Source: Squalus acanthias (Eukaryota). Taken from it: 64,000 bases of DNA. This document shows, piece after piece, positions 14,718-60,467 of the stretch. A program made the translations under genes and the position numbers. The notes beneath the pieces are model-generated. The model made no database searches. It was not told the origin of the DNA and saw only the letters and a program-made list of their open reading frames with translations. The stretch is from the NCBI GenBank assembly GCA_030390025.1, contig CM059432.1:34598001-34662000 (forward strand). The letters are read 5' to 3'. Position 1 is the first letter of the stretch, and each line of letters begins with the position of its first letter.

Positions 14718-14756
14718 CAGTTCTGACGAAGGGTCTTCGACCTGAAACGTTAACTG
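14718..14756 (+). ncRNA. Minimal type I hammerhead ribozyme motif, family A
   Basis: CAGTT-CTGACGA-A-GGGTC ttc GACCT-GAAA-CG-TT-AACTG: core boxes, helix II, helix I, palindrome AACGTT. Confidence 0.8.
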
Positions 14757-16173
14757 TGTTTCTCTCTCCACGGGTGTTGCCTGGCCTGCTGAGTTTTTCC
14801 AGCGCTTTCTGTTGTTATTTCAGTTTTCCAGCATCCGCAGTATTTTGCTATTGTATCTATTTTTGTGATGTTGGTTGAGGGATAAATATTGGCCAGGATA
14901 CTGTGGCGAACTCCGCTGCTCTTCTCTGAATAATGCCATGGGATCTTTTACGTCCACATATGAGCTCAAGTCTCTAGGGTGGGACTTGAACCCACAACCT
15001 TCTGACTCTGAGGCGAGAGTGCGACTAACTGAGCCACGGCTGACACAGTTGGTTGAGCAATTGGGTCTCTGCAGAGCAAAGTAAGGCCCTGTGCGACCGA
15101 CAGCCCACTGCAAAAGGAAAAGGGGAAGCACAACACGTGGAGTTTGGTTCTCATTAGACAGGAACAGTAAAAAAAAACGGTCAACAAAAAAGCCCACAGG
15201 GCTGTCAGCCACTCCCGCCCTCACAGAAACAATCAAGTAGTGTGAAAACAGCAGGCCAGTGGCCTATCTGTTACCATGGTGATAGAGATGTTGCCCACAG
15301 AAGAGGGTTTGTTCTGTTGCTTTCTTGATGGTCAATTTTGATTCAGTCATTAATCCTGCTCCAAGCTCTGTCTGTAGGATTAGTACAAACGGCAGACAAC
15401 TGTGATCTTATTAAAGGAGCCTCCCAAGCAGATAAACCAGCCACATATCAGGTAATCAATGTCAACAGGGTGTTAGTCAAAGCTAATCTTGTCAGTTTGA
15501 AGGATTCCAGTCAGTAATAGGGAACGGAACATTCTTTCTGATTTTTCACTTGGGATTAGCATCAAACAGCCCCAGGTCAGGTACAGAGTGGGTTCAGAAT
15601 AAAACTCCTTCTACGCTGTCCCATCAGACACTTCCAGGTCATCTAGGGCATGGGTTAGATGCAGAGTAAAGCTTCTTCTGCACGGCCCCATCGATGTACC
15701 CCAACTAACAGTGCCTTCTAGCCCAGTTCTGGAACCGGTTGCCTGCCCTGGTTTTTGAAATGAAAATGCATCTTTTGCTACTTATTTCTGTATCTTATGA
15801 TGTGGTGCATTCGTTATGAAAGTGAAATCCCCAGCAACAATTGCCAGTCACCCTCTTTGCAGAAATCTTTTTAATGCTGGCAATTTATATTGGAAGATTA
15901 GTTTTAAGTTCCAAGATGCAATCCTTTTTTGCTTTGCCACTATTGTATCTCCTGCAGCTGCTCTCCCAACCCCTGGTTCTCCCATTCGCTCTCCAAGTTC
16001 TGCACTGCCCCATCCCCTGGTTCTTATATCCCAACTTCTGCTGCCCCATCTCAACCTCTGCTGCCCTAACACATCTCTTGCCATCCCATCTATCACAAAC
16101 TACCCTAATTCCATACCCAGCTTCCCATACCATCCTCAGCTTCCCATATCTCATCTCTGCTGTCCCTATACCA

Positions 16174-16436
16174 TGATGTGGAGATGCCGGCGTTGGACTG
16201 GGGTGGACAAAAATGAGAAGTCGCACAACACCAGGTTATAGTCCCAACAGATTTATTTAATTTTACAAGCTTTCGTAGGGAAAGATTTGAATAGATTTTG
16301 TCTGTGTTTATATTGTGAATTCTGGGAGATTCTCTCACTGCTACCCTACCTGAGGAAGGAGCGAACCGCTCCGAAAGCTTGTAAAATTAAATAAATCTGT
16401 TGGACTATAACTTGGTGTTGTGCGACTTCTCATTTT
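16174..16436. mobile_element. Penelope-like element pLTR remnant in inverted arrangement
   Basis: About 70 bp inverted arms, hammerhead motif, flanking duplication tgtccctatacca; homologous to the termini of the element at 27068-27958. Confidence 0.8.
16347..16383 (+). ncRNA. Minimal type I hammerhead ribozyme motif, family B
   Basis: TAC-CTGAGGA-A-GGAGCG aac CGCTCC-GAAA-GC-TT-GTA. Confidence 0.75.
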
Positions 16437-16785
16437 TGTCCCTATACCAACCCCACCTACTCCATATCCATCCTCAGTTATTTTGAATTTGGCAAAAGGT
16501 GGCATCTCAATTTATAATCTTATCTTCAGGAGTACCACCTATTGCATCAGTGTGACCATTATATTTCCCACAAAAAACATTCTTATGACCTTTGAGTGTG
16601 ATTGGCAATTTAGTGTCAATTAACCCTGAATTATGGGCAGTTTTACATTGCAGACCCATATCATACTTACTGCTGGACTTTTACACAGATGGTGGCCAAC
16701 TGCTGGTATGGGTTACCAGGACAGATGGCTGAGGCCAGAACACTGGACTCCTTTAAGAAACAGCTGGATGTTGTCATGGGAAGAT

Positions 16786-25677: not shown

Positions 25678-26004
25678 CTGCAAGAGAGTAGCATATCGTA
25701 AGAGTCAATAACAGCTAGATCGAGCAGCAAAAGATGCTAATTTTACCAGGGTTTCAACTGTCGGGAGATTGAAGAATACATAGCTCTATTAAATTTCACT
25801 CTCTCTCTCAGATAACTATGGGGTGAAATTCCTCAGGAATTCTCCTGCTCCCTGTCGGTGGAGCGGGGAGCAGCCCGGAGGAAATTCATGTTAAATTAAA
25901 ATATGTGGCATTGGTCGCACATTTTTAAAGATAATTATTTTCTGCTGCAAGGAAAAATGAGGTAAACTGCTTTGTGATGTGAATCATTGTTATGGCCTTA
26001 TGGT

Positions 26005-27067
26005 TACCATGGAGAAATTAATGGGACCTGACGACCTGCATCCTAGGGTTTTAAAAGAGGTAGCTGCAGAGATAGTGGATGCACTGGTATTAATCTTCCA
26101 GAATTCCCTAGATTCTAGAACAGTCCCCAAGGATTGGAAGGTAGCAAACATAACCCCGCTATTTAAGAAAGGAGGAAGAGAAAAAACGGGGAACTGTCGG
26201 CCAGTTAGCCTGACTTCAGTAGTAGGCAAAATGCTAGAATCTATTATTAGGGACGTGGTAACAGGGCACTTAGAAAATCATAATATGATTAGGCAGAGTC
26301 AACATGGTTTTATGAAAGGGAAATCGTGTTTGACAAATCTGTTAGAGTTTTTCGAAGATGTAACTAGTAGGATGGATAAGGGGAAACCAGTGGATGTAGT
26401 GTATATGGATTTTCAAAAAGCATTCGGTAAGGTGCCACACAAGAGGTTATTACACAAAATTAGGACTCATGGTATTGGGGGTAATATATTAGCATGGATT
26501 GAGGATTGGTTAATGGACAGAAAACAGAGAGTAGGAATAAACGGGACTTTTTCAGGTTGGCAGGTTGCAACTTGCGGCGTACCGCAAGGATCAGTGCTTG
26601 GGCCTCAGCTATTTACAATCTATATTAGTGACTTAGATGAAGGGACTGAGTGTAACGTATCCAAGTTTGCTGATGATACAAAGGTAAGCTGTGAGGAGGA
26701 CGCAAAGAGGCTGCAGAAAAATATAGACAGGTTGACTGAGTGGGCAAGAACATGGCAAATGGAATACAATGTGGGGAAGTGTGAAGTTATCCACTTTGGT
26801 AGGAAAAACAAAAAAGCAGAATATTTTTTGAATGGTGAGAGACTGGGAAATGTTTACATTCAGAGGGACCTGGGTGTCCTTGTACATGAATCACAGAAAG
26901 TTAACACGCAGGTACAGCAAGCAATTAGGAAAGCAAATGGTGTGTTAGCTTTTGTTACAAAGGGATTAGAGTATAAGAGTAAAGAAGTCTTACTACAATT
27001 ATGCAGGGGGCATTGGTGAGGCCACACCTGGAGTACCGTGTACAGTTCTGGTCTCCTTACCTAAGAA
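26005..27067 (+). mobile_element. CR1 LINE ORF2 RT fragment, 3' end cut at the Penelope insertion
   Basis: RPVSLTS, QHGF, GVPQGSVLGP, KFADDTK. Confidence 0.93.
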
Positions 27068-27156
27068 ATGATGCGGAGATGCCGGTGTTGGACTGGGGTG
27101 GACAAAAGTGAGAAGTTGCACAACACCAGGTTATAGTCCAACAGTTTTATTTGAAA

Positions 27157-27193
27157 TCACAAGTTTTCGGAGCGCTGCTCCTTCGTCAGGTGA
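27157..27193 (-). ncRNA. Hammerhead motif, family B (palindrome mutated)
   Basis: Reverse complement TCAC-CTGACGA-A-GGAGC agc GCTCC-GAAA-AC-TT-GTGA. Confidence 0.7.
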
Positions 27194-27213
27194 AGTATCT
27201 GTGATGACGGATC

Positions 27214-27603
27214 ATGAACACAGATACCGTCATCACACGTGAGGACACTACCCACCAGGTACATGGTACATACTCATGTGTCTCGGCCAACGTTGTCTAC
27301 CTGATACGTTGCAGGAAAGGATGCCCCAGAGCATGGTACATCGGCGAGACCATGCAGACACTGAGACAACGTATGAACGGACACCGCGCAACAATCGCCA
27401 GGCAGGATAGTTGCCTCCCAGTCGGGGAACACTTCAGCAGTCAAGGGCATTCAGCCTCGGATCTGCGGGCTAGCGTTCTCCAAGGCGGCCTTCGAGATAC
27501 ACGACAATGCAAAATCATCGAGCAGAAACTGATAGCCAAGTTCCGCACTCATGAGGACGGCCTCAATAGGGATATCGGGTTCATGTCACGCTACAGAACG
27601 TGA
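27214..27603 (+). pseudogene. GIY-YIG endonuclease domain of Penelope-like element (RT missing)
   Basis: C..ANVVYLIRC..C...YIGET...LRQRMNGHR...EQKLI.KF......GLNRD. Confidence 0.9.
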
Positions 27604-27870
27604 CTTGACATCGTTGTCTGTCTTTCCAGTTTTTAAAAAACATACACAAAAAAACAAACCCAAAATACAAACCCCAAAAAAGACGGAGAGAGAGGAAGGG
27701 ATATGGAGAGAGATCAGCTACAGACAGCAGGATTTGACACGTTGGACCCCCTGGGACACATCTCATTGTCTTGGCTGTGCTCTTGGTGTGTCTTTGATGT
27801 AAGGAAAGATTGTATCTCTGTAGTATCTGTGTTTATATTGTGAACTTTTGTAGATTCACTCAGTTTAACT

Positions 27871-27910
27871 TTACCTGAAGAAGGGGCAGGATAGCTCCGA
27901 AAGCTTGTAA
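27871..27910 (+). ncRNA. Hammerhead motif, family B, in 3' pLTR
   Basis: TTAC-CTGAAGA-A-GGGGC aggata GCTCC-GAAA-GC-TT-GTAA. Confidence 0.75.
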
Positions 27911-28038
27911 TTTTAAATAAATCTGTTGGACTATAACCTGGTGTTGTGCGACTTCTCATATAATAGATGCTGAAGGTGCTAGTCATAACATTCAATGTGT
28001 ATCTGCTCTGGGAGTGTTTGATTGGATAGTGTAGAGGG

Positions 28039-35030: not shown

Positions 35031-35164
35031 CTTTGTAACGGCTGTTATATATTCATTGCTGAAGGTGCTATTCATAACATTCAATTTGTATCTAACCTGT
35101 GCTGTACCTGCCCTGGAGTGTATGATGGGACAGTACAGAAGGACCTTTACTCTGTATCGCTTAA

Positions 35165-36585
35165 TCATAGAATCATAGAATGGTTACAGCACAGAAGGAG
35201 GCCATTCGGCCCGTCGAGCCTGTGCCGGCTCTCTACCAAAGCACTTCAGCTAGTCCCACTCCCCCGCCCTTTCCCCGCAACCCTGCAAATTTTTTTCCTT
35301 CAGGTACTTATCCAATTCCCTTTTGAAAGCCACAATTGAGTCTGCCTCCACCACCCTCTCAGGCAGTGCATTCCAGATCCTAGCCACTCGCTGCGTAAAA
35401 AAGTTTTTCCTCATGTCGCCTTTGGTTCTTTTGTCAATCACCTTAAATTTGTATCCTCTGGTTCTCGACCCTTCCGCCAATGGGAACAGTTTCTCTCTAT
35501 CTACTCTGTTTAGACCCCTCATGATTTTGAACAACTCTATCAAATCTCCTCTCAACCTTCTCTACTCTAAGGAGAACAACCCCAACTTCTCCAGTCTATC
35601 CACGTAACTGAAGTCCCTCATCCCCGAAACCATTTTTGTAAATCTTTTCTGCACCCTCTCTAAGGCCTTCATATCCTTCCTAAAGTGCATTGCCCAGAAT
35701 TGAACAGAAAGGTTAATCATAACTTCCTTGCTTTTGTACTCTATGCCTCTATTTATGAAACCCAGGATCCCGTATGCTTTTTTAACCGCTTTCTCAACCT
35801 GCCCTACCACCTTCAACAATTTGTGCACATATACCCCCAGGCCTCTCTGTTCCTGCACCCCCTTTAGAATTGTACCCTTTAGTTTATATTTCCTCTCCTT
35901 GTTCTTCCTACCAAAATGTAGGAAGAACTTCGCACTTTTCTGCGTTAAGTTTCATCTGCCACTTGTCCGCCCATTCCACCAGCCTGTCTATGTCCTCTTG
36001 AAGTCTATCACTATCCTCTTCACTGTTCACTATACTTCCAAGTTTTGTGTCATCTGCAAATTTTGAAATTGTGCCCTGTACACCCAAGTCCAAGTCATTA
36101 ATATATATCCAGAAAAGCAGTGGTCCTAATACCGACCCTAGGGAACACCACTGTACACCTTCCTCCAGTCCGAAAAACAACCGTGCACCACTACTCTCTC
36201 TTTCCTGTTACTTAGCTAATTTCATATCCATGCTGCCACTGTTCCTTTTATTCCATGGGCTTCAACTTTGCTGGCAAGCCTATTATGTGGCACTTTATCA
36301 AACGCCTTTTGGAAGTCCATGTACACCACATCAACCGCATTGCCCTCATCAACCCTCTCGGTTACCTCATCAAAAAATTCAATCAAGTTAGTTAAACACG
36401 AGATAACAACAGAAAACGCTGGAAAAACTCAGCAGGCGAGGCAGCATCCGTGGAGAGAGAAACAGAGTTAACGTTTCAGGTCAAAGACCTTTCATCAGAA
36501 CTGTTAAACACGATTTGCCTTTAACAAATCTGTGCTGGCTTTCCTTAATTAATCCAAACTTGTCCAAGTGACTGTTAATTTTGCA
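35165..36585 (-). mobile_element. CR1 LINE RT to 3' end, interrupted by a 101-bp ribozyme insert
   Basis: SKFADDTKL, MRGDLIE; tctatgat-type tail. Confidence 0.92.
36466..36502 (-). ncRNA. Hammerhead motif, family A
   Basis: Reverse complement AGTT-CTGATGA-A-AGGTC ttt GACCT-GAAA-CG-TT-AACT. Confidence 0.8.
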
Positions 36586-36863: not shown

Positions 36864-37229
36864 CTGTTGAGGAAAACATGTGAAACAACTCGTTGAATGT
36901 GAATTCTTAGCATTTCATTGCATGTGTTTTATTCCCAAATCAAGTATCGTTGAAGGGTTGAGCAGACATTGGCCTTTCATCTCTGACACCGGGTTCAAAT
37001 CCACCTCTGATGAATGGGATGCAAGTTTCCTCTTTCTGCCATTTGTGTACAGTGAATCTCAGTCTCAAGTGGGCACGAGTCCCCAGCACCAAAACTGCAG
37101 TTACTTTATCACTAATTAGTGATGTCACTCAGGAGCACCATTGAATGGCAGGTGACAAATGGAAAAATGATGTCCTACAACACCATTATTACTGAGGTTG
37201 CAGCTGAGAGACATTAGAGGGATCTAGCC

Positions 37230-37392
37230 AGGGAATGTTTGATGGGCAGTGTAGGGGGACCTTTACTCTGTACCTAACCCGTGCTATACCTACCCTGGGA
37301 GTGTTTGCTGGGACAATGCAGACGGAGATTTACTCTGTATCTAACCTGTGCTGTACCTACCCTGGGAGCTTTTGCTGGGACAATGCAGAGGG
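37230..37392 (+). repeat. About 2.4 dispersed units of the 67-bp satellite
   Basis: Matches the unit of 59232-60360. Confidence 0.8.
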
Positions 37393-39134
37393 AGTCAATG
37401 GAAATAAAAATCGTGAGAGATGTAAAACAGGCTGCCGACTCGCTATCACCCATTTTACGCTATCACACAAAGTCAAGAGCTACCCCATGTCTCCATGTTT
37501 AAAGCCCAAGTGATTCTTCTCATTAACATATAACATAAAAAATAGTTCTAACTGATGTTTATGTTTTTTGCTATGGGTGTTAACCCAGGTTATTTTAACC
37601 TGGTTATTTTAACCTGGTTAACCCCGCGCTAACAAAACACACAGAGAAATTTAGTCCGAGCACGTTCAGTATTCATATGAGAACAGCATTGATTGGAAGA
37701 CATCCCCCATATTTGGAAAAGGAGTCGTTCGCTGCTGAGACTGCTCGATGAATCCTCTGCGGAATTCATGCTCGAGCTTCAGCTGCTTGATTAAGAATGT
37801 TTCTATGAATAATTAATTAAAAATTAATAAATCACTGTGAACAGCTGCATCTGAAGCTTCCAGGTTTTAAAACATTGTAGCTGTCTCTCTCTTGCTGAAG
37901 TTCAGTTGCTCTGTGTTCTATTTTTATCTCGCAGGTCGACACCTTTATATTACATTCCTGTCTGCACTATTTTGTCATGGTCGTTAATCTGTCTATATTA
38001 AGCACACAGAGGAAATGAAGCCCCTTTGGTGTCTGGGAGGTGTAAGAGAAACCAAAGTGAAACACAACAGGCACTTCAACATGCTGTTCTCCCTGGCTTT
38101 GGTGCTACAATGATCTCTGTATGCCTGACACTAGTTTGAAGCTGTGCGGTCTCACAACACGCATTACATTTGCTGAGGCTGGGTCGATGCGAACTGTATA
38201 GTTCAATTTGGGTGTGAAGTCACCAGAAACATGTCTAGCCAAAAAATAGCATAAGACCACTTCCAGGAGGGGTTTGCACCTGCACCAGAATACCGGCTGC
38301 CCACTGTGAAGCCGTGTTTAAAAAGCTCTCGGTCAGTAGTATAGGAATTCTGAGAAATGGGGAAACTAGGGCATGATTCTGGTATGGGGGAAGCAGAATA
38401 CACTGGGTTTCCATACAGACACACACAAAAATACGTGTCTGTATATGTATATTTGTGTATCTGTATATTTGGCTGCTGATATATGCGCCTGTATTTTTGT
38501 GCGTGTCTGTATTTTTGTGCGTGTCTGTATTTTTGCGTGTGTCTGTATATCTGCATGCCTGTAAATGTGCCTGTATACTTGTGTGCCAGTCTGTATATGC
38601 GCGTGCCTGTATGTCTCTACTTTTCCAATTATTATTCAGATTATTTGGCTGTCTTTGTTTCTCTGCTCCAATTACTAAAATGGGAAGAATCAAATAATTT
38701 CAAACCCTCCTCCCTAGGGCCAGATAAATGGCATCTCTATAAAAGAACTGGACATTTATCAAACCTGGCACGTTGAGGCCAAGGCCCTGAAAGTAGGCCA
38801 GACACCTTCATGTGATCTATAGAGAGCTGACAATGAGGGACGGGTTCGTGGACCCAGATCCCCTCCCCATTAATCACTGGAAGCCGCAGTGTCTACGGAA
38901 CTAAATCATTCTTCGGAAAGGCAGGGAGCAAATCTGAGGGCTTTTAAGGAGTGTATCGGAAATGCAGAATACTGAAACAGTGACGGGGACTTGGTGCTGC
39001 TCTATCTGCAGACAGTGACTATATTTTTCAGACGTAAAATCAGGTCAACCCTTTAAAAGGGAAATGAATTCAATTGCATGTCCCCTTAACAGCAGTGATG
39101 TAAAGAGAGATCTGCATATACTAACTTCAGGTCT

Positions 39135-49830: not shown

Positions 49831-51354
49831 GAAGGAAAGTTGTGGATAGATACTCCCTGAATCTCAAAGGTAATCAAGCAAAACTCTGAGATATTCATTG
49901 CTTTTCTACCATGTCCTGCTGCCCTCTGCAGACATTGGCCCCAGTAGCAGAGGACCATTGCATTCTGTGTAGAGGCTCAAGACCTCAGTGTAAACCTAAG
50001 CCTACAAGCTCCAGTCCAATTCCAAAGAAAATATTTGTTCAACTCCTTTTTAAAGGTGTAATTGACGCCGCAACAACTTACTGGGTGTCCCCTAAAGTGT
50101 ATCTGAGTCACCCATCCTGACTGCTGTGAACTGAATTCTCCATTCTGCCCACTCATAGGAATTGCTAAATGAAAAAAGGCCAAGGTATATCTAGTTCGCC
50201 TTCTACCATCCTGGTAGCTGCATGATATAATAATAATGGAGCTATTGACAATTCATAACTAAAGAACTTGCATTTTTATAGCGCCTTTCACAACCCCAGG
50301 ACATCCCAAAGGCTTTACAGCCAATGAAGTACTTTTGAAATGTAGTCACTGTTGTAATGTAGGGAAACTTGGCAGCCAATTTGCTCACAGTAAGCTTCAC
50401 TTACTTCACCTTGCTTGATCTTCAAGCACATGGACCTTCCAGCAGGTGGTTACCGGATGACAATACAATGAAACTCTAACGAGCTTTTCCCTTTCTTGGC
50501 CTTAAGGCTAATTATAGCGCCTCAAGCATGAACAAGGAATCAAAGCTCGTACCTTCTGCCCTCTGGCATCTGCCCATGGAGCCATCGAGGGAGCTGGACC
50601 TGCATCTAATGGGTGCAGCCCCTGATCCACAAGCAATTGATTCCAAGATTAATGAAAGAGTTAATTGATCCAGGAGGTGCCAGCCCTGGCATCTTTCACT
50701 TTGAGAACTAGATTGAACAATTAAGCACCGCCTATTATATGGCCGAGAACCATCGCTGTAAGCCTCGACGGCTCACCTTAACTTACATATTGAGTAAATG
50801 GTACACTATCTTTCTGCATGACATCCCATGTAACAACACCAGTCAAGGCCATTCCAAGGTGCTCGGATTAGCTTCCTGGAATGTATCTCACCTGGCAGTA
50901 ATGGCAGGAAGGGATTACTGTCCTGGATTCTACTCAGATGGGAACTGTCTAATTAATTCTGATGGCTCAGAAACATGACAACTGTTCCAGGAAGGACATC
51001 AAAGAGCAGAGAGTAGAATCATTTGTCTTATTCCAACTTGGTACAACAGGGTGACTGCGAAAGAGATAGCAGCAGCAGACCAAAGCCTAACTCAATAGCT
51101 CCGGAACTATTTGGGGCTGTTTTTGTTAGAATAGAGGAGATTACAAAGTTTGAAATTTTTAAAATTATGAAAGGATGGGACACGGTAGATAGAAACAAAC
51201 ATTTTCTTGTGATTAAGGGGTCTAGAAACAAGGGGATAATAGATATCAGATTAAAAGTAAGAGATTTAGGAGTGAGAACCAGATGTGTGAATGGGCGGTG
51301 TGTGAGTGAGACGTGTAAATGATTTGTATGTGAGTGAGACTTGTGTATGGACTG

Positions 51355-53070
51355 TGCATGTGTGTGAATGAGTTGTGTGTGAATGAGACGTGTGTGTGTG
51401 AATGAGTTGTGTGTGCGTGAATGAGTTGTGTCCGTGTGTAAATGAGTTGTGTCTGTGTGTGAATGAGTTGTGTCCGTGTGTGAATGAGTTTTGTGTGTGA
51501 ATGAGTTGTGTGTGTGTGTGAATGAGTTGTGTCTTGTGTGAATGAGTTGTGTCCGTGTGTGAATGAGTTGTGTCCATGTGTAAATGAGTTGTGTGTGTGA
51601 ATGAGTTGTGTGTTGTGTGAATGAGTTGTGTGTGTGTGTGAATGAGTTGTGTCTTGTGTGAATGAGTTGTGTCCGTGTGTAAATGAGTTGTGTGTGTGAA
51701 TGAGTTGTGTGTTGTGTGCATGAGTTGTGTGCGTGTGTGAATGAGTTGTGTGTTGTGTGCATGAGTTGTGTGCGTGTGTGAATGAGTTGTGTCCGTGTGT
51801 GAATGAGTTGTGTGTTGTGTGCATGAGTTGTGTGCGTGTGTGAATGAGTTGTGTCCGTGTGTGAATGAGTTGTGTGTTGTGTGCATGAGTTGTGTGCGTG
51901 TGTGAATGAGTTGTGTCCGTGTGTGAATGAGTTGTGTGTGTGTGTGAATGAGTTGTGTGCGTGTGTGAATGAGTTGTGTGTTGTGTGCATGAGTTGTGTG
52001 CGTGTGTGAATGAGTTGTGTCCGTGTGTGAATGAGTTGTGTGTGTGTGTGTGAATGAGTTGTGTGTTGTGTGCATGTGTGAATGAGTTGTGTCCGTGTGT
52101 GAATGAGTTGTGTGTGTGTGTGAATGAGTTGTGTGCGTGTGTGAATGAGTTGTGTGCGTGTGCGAATGAGTTGTGTCCGTGTGTGAATGAGTTGTGTCTT
52201 GTGTGTGAATGAGTTGTGTGCGTGTGTGAATGAGTTGTGTGTGTGTGAATGAGTTGTGTGCGTGCGTGAATGAGTTGTGTGCGTGCGTGAATGAGTTGTG
52301 TGCGTGCGTGAATGAGTTGTGTGCGTGCGTGAATGAGTTGTGTGCGTGCGTGAATGAGTTGTGTGCGTGCGTGAATGAGTTGTGTGTGCGTGAATGAGTT
52401 GTGTGTGTGAATGAGTTGTGTGTGTGTGAATGAGTTGTGTGTGTGTGTGAATGAGTTGTGTGTGTGTGTGAATGAGTTGTGTGTGTGAATGAGTTGTGTG
52501 TGTGAATGAGTTGTGTGTGTGAATGAGTGTGTGTGTGAATGAGTTGTGTGTGTGTGAATGAGTTGTGTGTGTGTGAATGAGTTGTGTGTGTGTGAATGAG
52601 TTGTGTGCGTGTGAATGAGTTGTGTGCGTGTGAATGAGTTGTGTGCGTGTGTGAATGAGTTGTGTGCGTGCGTGAATGAGTTGTGTGCGTGCGTGAATGA
52701 GTTGTGTGTGTGAATGAGTTGTGTGTGTGTGAATGAGTTGTGTGCGTGTGTGAATGAGTTGTGTGCGTGCGTGAATGAGTTGTGTGTGTGTGTGAATGAG
52801 TTGTGTGTGTGAATGAGTTGTGTGCGTATGTGAATGAGTTGTGTGCGTGTGTGAATGAGTTGTGTGCGTGTGTGAATGAGTTGTGTGCGTGTGTGAATGA
52901 GTTGTGTGCGTGTGTGAATGAGTTGTGTCTGTGTGTGAATGAGTTGTGTGCGTGTGTGAATGAGTTGTGTGCGTATGTGAATGAGTTGTGTGCGTGTGTG
53001 AATGAGTTGTGTGTGTGTGAATGAGTTGTGTGCGTGTGTGAATGAGTTGTGTGCGTGTGTGAATGAGATG
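51355..53070. repeat. Minisatellite gaatgagtt(gt)n, units of 17-23 bp, modal 21
   Basis: Directly visible tandem array. Confidence 0.97.
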
Positions 53071-53428
53071 TGTGAGTGAAACGTGTGTATTGTTCTGCAC
53101 ATATGTGTGAATGAGTTGTGACTGACTGATGTGTATATGCGCTGTGTTTGCTTGTGACCAGGTTGTGTGTGGATGGTGATGACTGCCAGTGACCTGTCCC
53201 CACCACCGAGCACACATGAAAAACCGTTCCCTCCTGGGGTTCAGTAACAGGCCGACAGCCCAGGTAAAACTATGCCCCAACCCGGATCTGCAGCTTGCGG
53301 GGGGGGGAGAGAAGGAGGCAAATAATGAATGAATTGAGGTCTGATCGTTGGAGAGGATTTGCAGTGCACTGGAGCTGTAATGTGTGAACAGTACAGTGGG
53401 CTGTGAGACTCAGGCAGACTTCCTTTAC

Positions 53429-57302: not shown

Positions 57303-58475
57303 GAAGGGGAGATGGAAAGTGGGAGAGAAGGGAGAGATGGGCAGAGGGGGAAGAGGGACACACAAAGCCAGGGCCGATGTTAGGACCATGCAACCTGTGC
57401 AATTGGACAAGGCCACGAGCTAGTCAAAGCAAATGTCATCCCTGTACAGAGAAGGGGAGGTGAATAGACGGAGAAAGGAGGGGTAAGCACAGACAGAGAG
57501 GGAAGGAGACAGAGAGGAAGAGAGTGGTAGTGAGGATAGAAAACAAATGAATTTATGGGCACAAACTATCAGCATTTTCTCAATGTTTCATTAAAGGAGT
57601 TGTTGAATGCCTCCTATTATGTCAAATAAAGGTGATTCATCTCCTCGATTGAAACAATGAATTTTTAACAAAATAGTTTGGGGATCAAAAGGAAAACAGT
57701 CTGACAGCCAGCAGCAGGGACTGAACGCCCCTATGTGAAGTATTTTAACATTTTGTTTTGAGTATTCAACAAAACCTGGAAATTTCAGTTGAGGTGTTGG
57801 AGGTTGAAGCACAGACAGCCATTATCTGCTAACTAGCAGATCTCCCCTGGCATTGCTCATGGTAAGTTGGAAGATTGGCTGTTTTATAACGACCAGAGCA
57901 TTACACCATGTGACATGCAATCTAGTATTCTGCTGCTGAGGTGGAGCTGCATGTTACTAACCTGTCCCTTTTAATGGAGATATCCAGAGGCCAATTGGAA
58001 GCTAATTGCTGTCTCTGCAGGACATTTGTCTGCAGACTGGCAGTTGATTAGAAATCCCCAGCTCCTTCCCTTGGAAAGAGGCCAGGTTATCATGGTCAGA
58101 AGAAACAAGTAGGAATGACTGGCTTTCTTTCTCTATTTTTTCTATATATTTTTCAAAGATGCTTCTTGTTGATTGGTCAGTTCTCTCTGTTGAGTTTTGA
58201 TTTGCTTTTGTTTGGTTCAAATGTCATATTCATTAATCAGATGCAAATTGTGACACAGACTTTCCATGTGTGACGCTTTTCAACAAAGTTTCAACAGAGA
58301 AAGACATTGGGGGTGAAATTTCCATCGTTAGCGCCTCCGGTGGGAGGCACTAACGGGGCGCAAATGGCTTTTCGTCCCCCGAAGCGCTAACCGCGCCTCC
58401 CGTGAAATTCTGCAGGAGGTTAGCGGTGGCGCTACCGGGTAGCGCCCCAATCTTCTGCGCCCGGAGATCATGACG

Positions 58476-58512
58476 TCACCTGACGAAGGAGCAGCGCTCC
58501 GAAAGCTTGTGA
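58476..58512 (+). ncRNA. Hammerhead motif, family B
   Basis: TCAC-CTGACGA-A-GGAGC agc GCTCC-GAAA-GC-TT-GTGA. Confidence 0.8.
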
Positions 58513-58560
58513 TTTCAAATAAAGCTGTTGGACTATAACCTGGTGTTGTGCGACTTCTCA
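58476..58560 (+). mobile_element. Solo Penelope-like pLTR fragment
   Basis: Matches the pLTRs at 16.3 and 27 kb through cgacttctca. Confidence 0.8.
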
Positions 58561-59231
58561 CATCCTGGTAGTGGCGTGATACAATGATAATGGTGTTGTT
58601 GACTAATCACAGCAATCAATCTCTTTCAATTAGTCTACAGCAGACCCAAATATCACGAGGAAAACCACCAGGAGTGGAGAGCTTTGGGAACCATAGGTCC
58701 AAAGTCACCTGTTCCTCCCAAGCATGCTACACTTTATGACATCTCTGAGAAATGTCCCAAAGTGTTTCACATAGAATAATTTACTTTCAAATACTGGGGT
58801 GAGGAAGACACTATACAATTCTGGGGACAGAAAGTGGAGTCCAAGGTGAAGCATTTGTACCAACCAGATCACTTCCTTTAATCCTTTTCTTATGCTCTTA
58901 CAAAACGTAACATGTAACGAGACAGCGTGAAATGAGAAATGTCCATTGGGCCCACCAGCCTACTTCCTCCAATTCCGGAGATGCTTGAGTGAAAGGTTAA
59001 TCCCCAAGGTTGAAAAGAGTAGGCGGGAGGATGAGGCAGATCAGCAAGTGGTGATTAAAGGGGAAGTGGATCAGTACTTGAAAAGGAAAAATTTAAAAGG
59101 ATACTGGAAAATGGCAGGGAAATGGGATTTGAGTGTGTCAGCTCTAGCTGAAAAACTAGCACTGACACAGGCGCAATAGGCCAAATAGACTGCTTCTGTG
59201 CTGTAATTTCAGTGATTCTTTGATTGAGCAT

Positions 59232-60360
59232 TGTAGAGGGAGCTTTACTCTGTATCTATCCTGTGCTGTACCTGCCCTGGGAGTGTTTGATGGGACAGTG
59301 TAGAGGGAGCTTTACTCTGTATCTATCCTGTGCTGTACCTGCCCTGGGAGTGTTTGATGGGACAGTGTAGAAGGAGCTTTACTCTGTATCTAACCCGTGC
59401 TGTACATGGCCTGGGAGTGTTTGATGGGACAGTGTAGAGGGAGCTTTACTCTGTATCTAACCCGTGCTGTACATGGCCTGGGAGTGTTTGATGGAGCAGT
59501 GTAGAGGGAGCTTTACTCTGTATCTAACCCATGCTGTACATGGCCTGGGAGTGTTTGATGGGACAGTGTAGAAGGAGCTTTACTCTGTATCTAACCCGTG
59601 CTGTACCTGCCCCGGGAGTGTTTGATGGGGCAGTGTAGAGGGAGCTTTACTCTGTATCTAACCCGTGCTGTACATGGCCTGGGAGTGTTTGATGGAGCAG
59701 TGTAGAGGGAGCTTTACTCTGTATCTAACCCGTGCTGTACCTGCCCTGGGAGTGTTTGATGGGACAGTGTAGAGGGAGCTTTACTCTGTATCTAACCCGT
59801 GCTGTACATGGCCTGGGAGTGTTTGATGGAGCAGTGTAGAGGGAGCTTTACTCTGTATCTAACCCGTGCTGTACATGGCCTGGGAGTGTTTGATGGGACA
59901 GTGTAGAAGGAGCTTTACTCTGTATCTAACCCGTGCTGTACCTGCCCCGGGAGTGTTTGATGGGGCAGTGTAGAGGGAGCTTTACTCTGTATCTAACCCG
60001 TGCTGTACATGGCCTGGGAGTGTTTGATGGAGCAGTGTAGAGGGAGCTTTACTCTGTATCTAACCCGTGCTGTACCTGCCCTGGGAGTGTTTGATGGGGC
60101 AGTGTAGAAGGAGCTTTACTCTGTATCTATCCAGTGCTGTACATGGCCTGGGAGTGTTTGATGGGACAGTGTAGAGGGAGCTTTACTCTGTATCTATCCT
60201 GTGCTGTACATGGCCTGGAAGTGTTTGATGGGGCAGTGTAGAGGGAGCTTTACTCTGTATCTATCCTGTGCTGTACATGGCCTGGAAGTGTTTGATGGGG
60301 CAGTGTAGAGGGAGCTTTACTCTGTATCTATCCTGTGCTGTACATGGCCTGGGAGTGTTT
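59232..60360. repeat. 67-bp tandem satellite, about 17 units
   Basis: Unit tgtagagggagctttactctgtatctaacccgtgctgtacctgccctgggagtgtttgatgggacag; constant period 67. Confidence 0.97.
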
Positions 60361-60467
60361 GGCGCTGACATGAGGTGCAAAAAAGCGTTCAGTTTGCCAT
60401 TAAAGACGTCCTATCCATCTTGCGAGATACCCCCAAATATTTTTAAAGATAGAAGGAGGGGTCTTAC

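Follow-up and report, generated by a model that had tools for sequence, protein, structure and literature searches.

The fragment at positions 27068-27959 of the window (the whole 64-kb stretch of DNA analyzed here, vertebrate DNA rich in repeats) is the dead remnant of a known kind of retroelement, a Penelope-like element (PLE), in the usual back-to-back layout, and its two pLTR arms belong to different subfamilies. It is a 5'-truncated shark copy that combines an inverted pLTR, a 41-nt tail at one side only and minimal hammerheads (Table 1). The element type, the layout and the ribozyme are already known, the origin of the arms from two subfamilies is the sole oddity, and apart from these mixed arms the locus is an ordinary dead repeat. 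Inverted pLTRs, one-sided tails, palindromes and TSD-less copies are all described in the published accounts PMC8557442, PMC3846280 and PMC4209133, so that the regard in which a preliminary description of this DNA had held the locus was too high.

The analysis was based on the window, homologous proteins, the contigs of 4 public runs (20 listed) and the literature. Scans with the pLTR motif gave no loci in viral contigs, metagenomes or prokaryote genomes, and in the EN protein scans none of the 62 metagenome and none of the 23 viral candidate stretches was confirmed. PLEs and hammerhead repeats are reported to co-occur over the vertebrate classes, Chondrichthyes included (10.64898/2026.07.22.740005).

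Table 1. Features of the PLE locus, of its flanks and of the two other copies of the family in the window
Feature	Positions	Strand	Basis or remark
Host LINE (CR1-like), RT region, cut at the PLE	25961..27067	+	RVT_1, E 1e-33
41-nt tail, left arm only	27068..27108	-	first base common to CR1; left arm of the 16-kb element has the same tail
Inverted pLTR arm, variant A, predicted minimal type I hammerhead	27109..27195	-	core 27183-27189
Junction filler, 14 nt, reverse-complement copy of the adjacent EN 5' end	27196..27209	.	inverted repeats with the EN stump
5'-truncated GIY-YIG endonuclease (EN) domain of the PLE ORF, with CCHH motif, decaying	27210..27603	+	homology, alignment, fold
3' UTR / upstream pLTR part	27604..27870	+	from 27799 onward common to the 16-kb element
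Direct pLTR end, variant B, predicted minimal hammerhead, no tail	27871..27959	+	stem I 27871-27874 with 27907-27910; core 27875-27881
Right flank: AT-rich beginning of an unrelated repeat, followed by part of the 67-bp satellite unit; not CR1	27958..28038	+	matches 35047-35093 and the 59.2-60.4 kb array
Control copy, head-to-head variant-B arms, tail on the left	16161..16449	.	2 differences in 63 nt; 13-bp TSD 16161-16173 / 16437-16449
Solo variant-A arm, tail-less	58476..58561	+	5' end within 2-3 nt of the 5' end of the left arm

The truncated GIY-YIG endonuclease frame

The stop-free GIY-YIG ORF of 129 codons and the PLE identity put forward in the preliminary description were both borne out. 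The open frame at 27208-27603 comprises 131 codons from stop to stop, or 129 when counted from the ATG at 27214, and its closest relative is a Heptranchias protein (P0001; 89% identical) that contains an RT domain, an affiliation to which the pLTR layout adds. By Pfam profile the GIY-YIG assignment falls slightly short, with 21.5 bits against a cut-off of 22.6, but it is carried by the PLE relatives and by the match to the I-TevI fold. A predicted model of the frame (mean pLDDT 64.7) had the I-TevI catalytic domain as its best structural match (Z 9.6, rmsd 2.9, 91 aligned), followed by T4 EndoII and the N-terminal domain of UvrC, both of them GIY-YIG nucleases; a PDB sequence search with the RT+EN alignment returned no chains. 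A search restricted to longer proteins yielded 51 relatives among 90 candidates; the closest ones are shark proteins, those of Scyliorhinus (85%) and Mustelus (81-82%) coming after that of Heptranchias. In P0001 and in P0012 and P0031, two proteins of ~880 aa with an RT and a C-terminal EN, the RT lies upstream of the EN, and it is not within the truncated copy. Residues Y31, Y44, G46, R55, E105 and N120, the catalytic Tyr, Arg, Glu and Asn among them, are unchanged in the 11 aligned sequences, and so are C35, C39, H75 and H81 of the CCHH motif, whose two cysteines are both placed between GIY and YIG.

A Cx5CxxC linker stands just upstream of the truncation point at 27210 in the homologues, where it is intact in 9 of the 10 aligned proteins and has lost its last cysteine in P0002; from the studied copy it was truncated away. 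Because this type of linker, in Neptune a CX2-5CxxC Zn finger placed between the RT and the C-terminal EN, is missing from Penelope and Poseidon and reduced in Nematis according to PMC8557442, the element is most likely of the Neptune type, judging from the linker of its homologues. The C-terminal GIY-YIG domain with CCHH, the vertebrate host and close homologues with RT and a full Cx5CxxC linker agree with the Neptune clade as presented in the same source. Unlike a complete Neptune element, the shark copy starts directly behind the position of the linker and lacks the RT, and its place in the clade is a probable one.

The open frame is a decaying C-terminal stump and not a gene. It corresponds to the last ~130 residues of an RT+EN ORF of ~880 aa, and the ATG at 27214 is therefore not a start. 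Among the 13 EN variant sites listed, the three near-fixed private differences, at which the window departs from at least 93% of the contig depth in run X2, are all non-synonymous and include the change of the conserved R101 to C. The open state of the frame is unremarkable, since ~51% of simulated neutral copies keep it open at 5% divergence. A functional stand-alone or domesticated nuclease gene was considered and rejected, because the frame begins at the truncation point, has no start of its own and shows no sign of purifying selection.

The loose ends of public contigs place the beginning of the family homology at 27210/11. Many contigs cover 27604-27870 in the three runs of organism A, and in organism F the depth over 27618-27833 is zero. 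The EN peptide also occurs inside annotated shark gene isoforms (P0010, P0011, P0023, P0025 and P0043; septin 5a, XRCC5, PPP1R12A-like, P450 and IQCK), which are either exonised intronic PLE copies or annotation artefacts.

Hammerhead arms of two subfamilies

Five arms of the studied pLTR were found in the window, namely the left (27068-27195, minus strand) and right (27799-27959, plus strand) arms of the fragment, a head-to-head pair at 16.17-16.44 kb and the solo arm at 58 kb; the family thus holds 3 loci and about 2% of the window. Four of the arms extend into the hammerhead. Each of these has the two boxes CUGANGA and GAAA, a stem I of 4 bp, a stem II of 5 bp and, preceding the latter, one additional base; the core motifs and stems I/II are present in all four, with 97% of cells paired. 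Stem I of the left arm is formed by 27190-27193 with 27157-27160, and its stem III palindrome is broken by a private change at 27164, where the window base differs from 99% of the contig depth in each of the 4 runs. As the fold z-scores are modest (-1.2 to -1.4) and Rfam provided no matching hammerhead model (8 weak hits only), the identification of the ribozyme rests on motif and context, which indicate the minimal PLE hammerhead of PMC4209133 with putative self-cleavage.

The metazoan PLE motifs presented in PMC4209133 share with the shark arms the type I fold, the 4-bp stem I, the G10.1-C11.1 pair, the palindromic stem III and the extra base between positions 9 and 10.1; they are described there as opposite-strand pairs 100-700 bp apart and as highly variable within one genome. 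The Schistosoma motifs of that account have a stem II of 7-8 bp, in contrast to the 5 bp of the shark, and the loss of the palindrome in the left copy and the lack of an Rfam hammerhead model match are further differences from the metazoan PLE hammerheads. A second hammerhead-like family in the window (14723-14830, plus strand, and 36390-36498, minus strand; 91% alike), with another stem II and a palindromic stem III, is unrelated to the studied pLTR. In the 16-kb copy the TSD overlaps the element by microhomology at both the tail end and the tail-less end, which makes this copy a clean example of two RT start sites.

The left inverted arm had been described as the 58.5-kb variant and the right one as the 16.3-kb variant, and both groupings stand. 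The left arm (27108-27196, minus strand) is 95.5% identical to 58473-58561 and 86.8% identical to its own right arm, and the right arm matches 16301-16433 at 85%. The upstream block that had been cited as discriminating marker was, however, rejected in this role, because the left arm is truncated before the block, which for that reason cannot separate the arms. In a comparison of 83 columns that lie outside loop II and contain no gaps, the left arm shows 3 differences from the 58-kb copy and 9 from the right arm of its own element, and 7 columns distinguish the right arm from the 58-kb copy. Among the four full-hammerhead arms, 4 two-state columns group the left arm with the 58-kb copy and the right arm with the 16-kb copy, none supports either other grouping, and a fifth, three-state column agrees with the former arrangement. 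One compensated stem I pair, C-G in variant A and U-A in variant B, is not significant (1 pair, 4 sequences; 84 of 500 shuffles).

Private changes are present in both arms (3 columns in the left, 2 in the right), as they would be if the arms had been identical at insertion and differed by decay only, an alternative that the preliminary description had itself kept in mind. Nevertheless, at 5 of the 7 columns that set it apart from the 58-kb copy the right arm has exactly the base of the independent 16-kb copy, an agreement with a p of about 2e-5 under independent decay; the two arms of the 16-kb control element differ at just 2 of 63 positions, and the B-specific context is covered by up to 50 contigs per run. 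Decay as the source of the differences is rejected by this shared-site test and is left with next to no probability.

The B-specific context reaches at most ~5% of the A-arm depth in the three runs of organism A and has no depth in organism F, and a block of the 3' UTR is at least 10-fold deeper than the B context in the public contigs. Summed contig depth, which is not equal to copy number, gives a hint of a single family that shares the EN and comprises A and B as its subfamilies, with B the rarer of the two. The link made earlier between the hammerhead family of these arms and the GIY-YIG nuclease is also supported. Mixed-subfamily inverted pLTRs were not found by title or abstract start in open-licence PMC papers and bioRxiv, the part of the literature covered, so that this is weak evidence of absence.

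Junctions and flanks of the fragment

On the left side, the fragment interrupts a host LINE that we take to belong to the CR1 clade. Its sequence ends at 27067/8, and neither a resumption nor a close continuation was detected in the 64-kb window, in agreement with the earlier remark that the CR1 does not resume on the right. The normal continuation of this CR1 is seen in the copy at 14 kb and in contig loose ends, and because position 27056 maps to 30246 of a paralogue in which the frame extends to 30751, at least about 0.5 kb of the 3' part is missing. The absence of a visible TSD was confirmed as well, the longest word shared near both ends of 27068-27959 being one of 5 nt, located inside the tail and past the right end.

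On the right side, the end of the arm and the unrelated repeat, which recurs at 35.05 kb, overlap by the 2 nt AT. The 67-bp satellite forms an array with dispersed pieces in the window (59196-60361, 37224-37394, 35079-35158, 15560-15692 and 27998-28038), and a few contigs join it directly to the PLE tail end, which indicates that other PLE copies sit in the satellite. A separate imperfect tandem repeat of about 1.9 kb occupies 51284-53171. The region of the solo A arm (58300-58620) is also without TSD; its left flank is a different, GC-rich repeat, and the sequence to its right corresponds to a repeat at 50.2 kb that here lacks its upstream part. This arm may represent a second insertion with deletion, or it may have been cut later.

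Between the A arm and the EN stump lies a 14-nt filler copied in reverse from the 5' end of the stump itself, a feature that, like the one-sided tail, the preliminary description had missed. The filler makes an 11-bp perfect inverted repeat with 27227-27237 and an overlapping one of 9 nt with 27219-27227, its hairpin has a z of -4.47 (reached in 0 of 200 shuffles), and a match of 11 nt is attained by only 1 of 4266 window 15-mers, namely at the place of the filler. Such an inverted copy points to an EN end that folded back and briefly served as its own template before being joined to the A arm.

None of the 32 contig pieces listed (of 135,986; 4 runs) spans the junctions. Among the joints listed (of 211), opposite-strand joints 27163>27196 were present in 2, 3 and 2 contigs of runs X2, X5 and X18, respectively, and suit other A/A head-to-head copies. 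Joints 27196>27893/4, seen in 3, 3 and 1 contigs with short sides of 27-29 letters (again among the joints listed of 211), could be further A/B-like pairs and were not counted as evidence.

Origin of the mixed-arm copy

The fragment probably, although by no means certainly, goes back to a single integration, with a different pLTR template for the priming of each end of a break and with snap-back repair to join the two. A very abundant shark PLE of the Neptune type would have integrated a single time, its RT extending both DNA ends. At the AT-rich site in the repeat, the right end would have been primed on a variant-B pLTR, at its start site without tail, and about 750 nt would have been copied back from there, across the 3' UTR and as far as the EN domain. 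For the left end, in the CR1, priming would have taken place on a variant-A pLTR at the tail site, which lies 41 nt further out, and the synthesis of this cDNA would have come to a halt after about 128 nt, on reaching the foot of stem I of the hammerhead. The 3' end of the longer cDNA may then have folded back, copied 14 nt of itself and joined the short cDNA to give the head-to-head junction. The two primed ends would not have been both sides of one staggered cut, so that the target DNA between the cuts would be lost and no TSD would form. It is conceivable that the pLTR templates were two RNAs of different subfamilies, and rather less plausible that a single RNA, derived from a partial tandem of mixed A/B composition, supplied both with its two ends.

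The geometry of the fragment, with its inverted arm and tail at a single end, equals that of the 16-kb copy, which its 13-bp TSD identifies as one insertion. The left arm and the solo A copy end alike, which suits a stop at the time of insertion, but this shared end point carries little weight because the 5' end of the solo copy abuts another repeat and was maybe cut later. Mixed A/B arms are known from one locus only, where the missing TSD and the unrelated flanks leave no direct proof of a single event.

The protein of PAc, the Poseidon PLE of Anolis carolinensis, is reported to cut and extend both target strands, to prefer AT-rich DNA, to start RT at two sites bounding the tail and to be a predicted dimer (PMC11167929), and the two start sites, the extension of both strands and the AT-rich targets predict the shark geometry. 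In contrast to the shark element, PAc belongs to a different clade and has an ORF that starts inside the hammerhead, the first downstream ATG of the shark element being at the tail end (16-kb arm). The EN+ PLE insertions Pen2/Pen2a of Adineta vaga (PMC3846280), with the general layout given in PMC8557442, resemble the shark locus in their 5'-truncated body, the inverted 5' copy and the tail of 30-40 nt at one end, and also, according to PMC3846280, in the palindrome at the inverted junction, regarded there as a PLE trait, and in some copies without TSD. Their arms are of one family, with no mention of a subfamily mismatch in those descriptions, whereas the shark locus is mixed and has lost at least about 0.5 kb of target. 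Insertions of L1 made from two RNAs likewise contain two 5'-truncated cDNAs, which meet at the 5' breakpoints by way of microhomology or filler, and they can bridge distant DNA ends (PMC11702581, 10.1101/2024.08.27.596794); inverted insertions from two different RNAs arise in cell models according to PMC11702581, and bridges of two inverted truncated copies are reported in 10.1101/2024.08.27.596794. As portrayed in these sources, however, they rely on poly(A) priming, belong to cell models and tumours and are rare, unlike a germline PLE for which an inverted layout is the norm.

The most serious rival, which we hold to be rather unlikely, comprises two insertions at different times, a B copy and an A copy head to head, fused by a deletion that came with the second insertion or later, via end joining with templated filler. 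The preliminary description had already proposed two successive insertions with a deletion, and the proposal stays alive, since two head-to-head insertions of independent origin, with a subsequent deletion between them, would yield exactly the sequence of a single event, filler included. It accounts together for the different arms, the missing TSD, the lost 3' end of the CR1 and the unrelated right flank, and the dense presence of the family in the window speaks for it. Templated inverted fillers are, moreover, typical of ordinary microhomology-mediated repair too. Nevertheless, both breakpoints would have to hit PLE pieces, which make up so small a part of the window, the deletion would have to rebuild the canonical layout of the TSD-flanked 16-kb copy, with the tail on the left and none on the right, and the left arm stops where another A copy stops.

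The remaining explanations are clearly less probable. An element that started with two B arms and later had the left one replaced through ectopic gene conversion, with the more abundant A as donor, would draw on the ~20-fold or greater depth of the A-arm site over the B-specific site in the three runs of organism A (a ratio of depth and not of copy number); it is improbable, as all 5 diagnostic columns across the whole left arm are non-B, with no B remnant, and as the lost target DNA is left unexplained. The failure of any of the contig pieces listed to span the junction would fit an assembly or chimeric-read artefact joining two loci at 27196-27209, but the filler is an overlapping two-part inverted copy of adjacent sequence, the layout is that of a canonical PLE, and a repeat-collapse join would be expected within homology and not at such a filler, which makes an artefact very improbable. 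The template switch between subfamilies suggested in the preliminary description fits poorly in its strict sense, that of an RT passing from a B RNA to an A RNA in one continuous cDNA synthesis. Template jumps have been proposed for PLEs (PMC3846280) and the filler does show a local jump; however, a continuous switch on sense RNAs gives the same orientation, and the arms here are opposite, so that an antisense A template would be needed and such a switch becomes extremely improbable. According to PMC11702581, same-orientation L1 insertions are attributed to template switching, and those in which two transcripts lie in opposite orientation are put down to the ligation of ends that had been extended separately; by this comparison the opposite orientations of the shark arms point to two separately primed cDNAs.

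Two models have been put forward for inverted PLE ends, self-priming on one antisense template (PMC3846280) and priming on both strands, possibly by a dimeric protein (PMC11167929). Fold-back copying of one molecule predicts identical arms and could not produce a single insertion with arms of mixed subfamilies, and loci of this kind would therefore separate the two models. One TSD-less locus cannot settle between them, and its mixed arms are a small hint that one insertion can come from two different templates. It is a tentative and on balance doubtful idea that PLE integration is routinely bimolecular, with two protein-RNA complexes, possibly of different subfamilies, each priming one end and the cDNAs being joined by snap-back. 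If this were true, arms of mixed subfamilies would provide a natural genomic tag for counting two-RNA events, separated cuts would lead to the deletion of the intervening DNA, and PLEs would contribute germline deletions to shark genomes.
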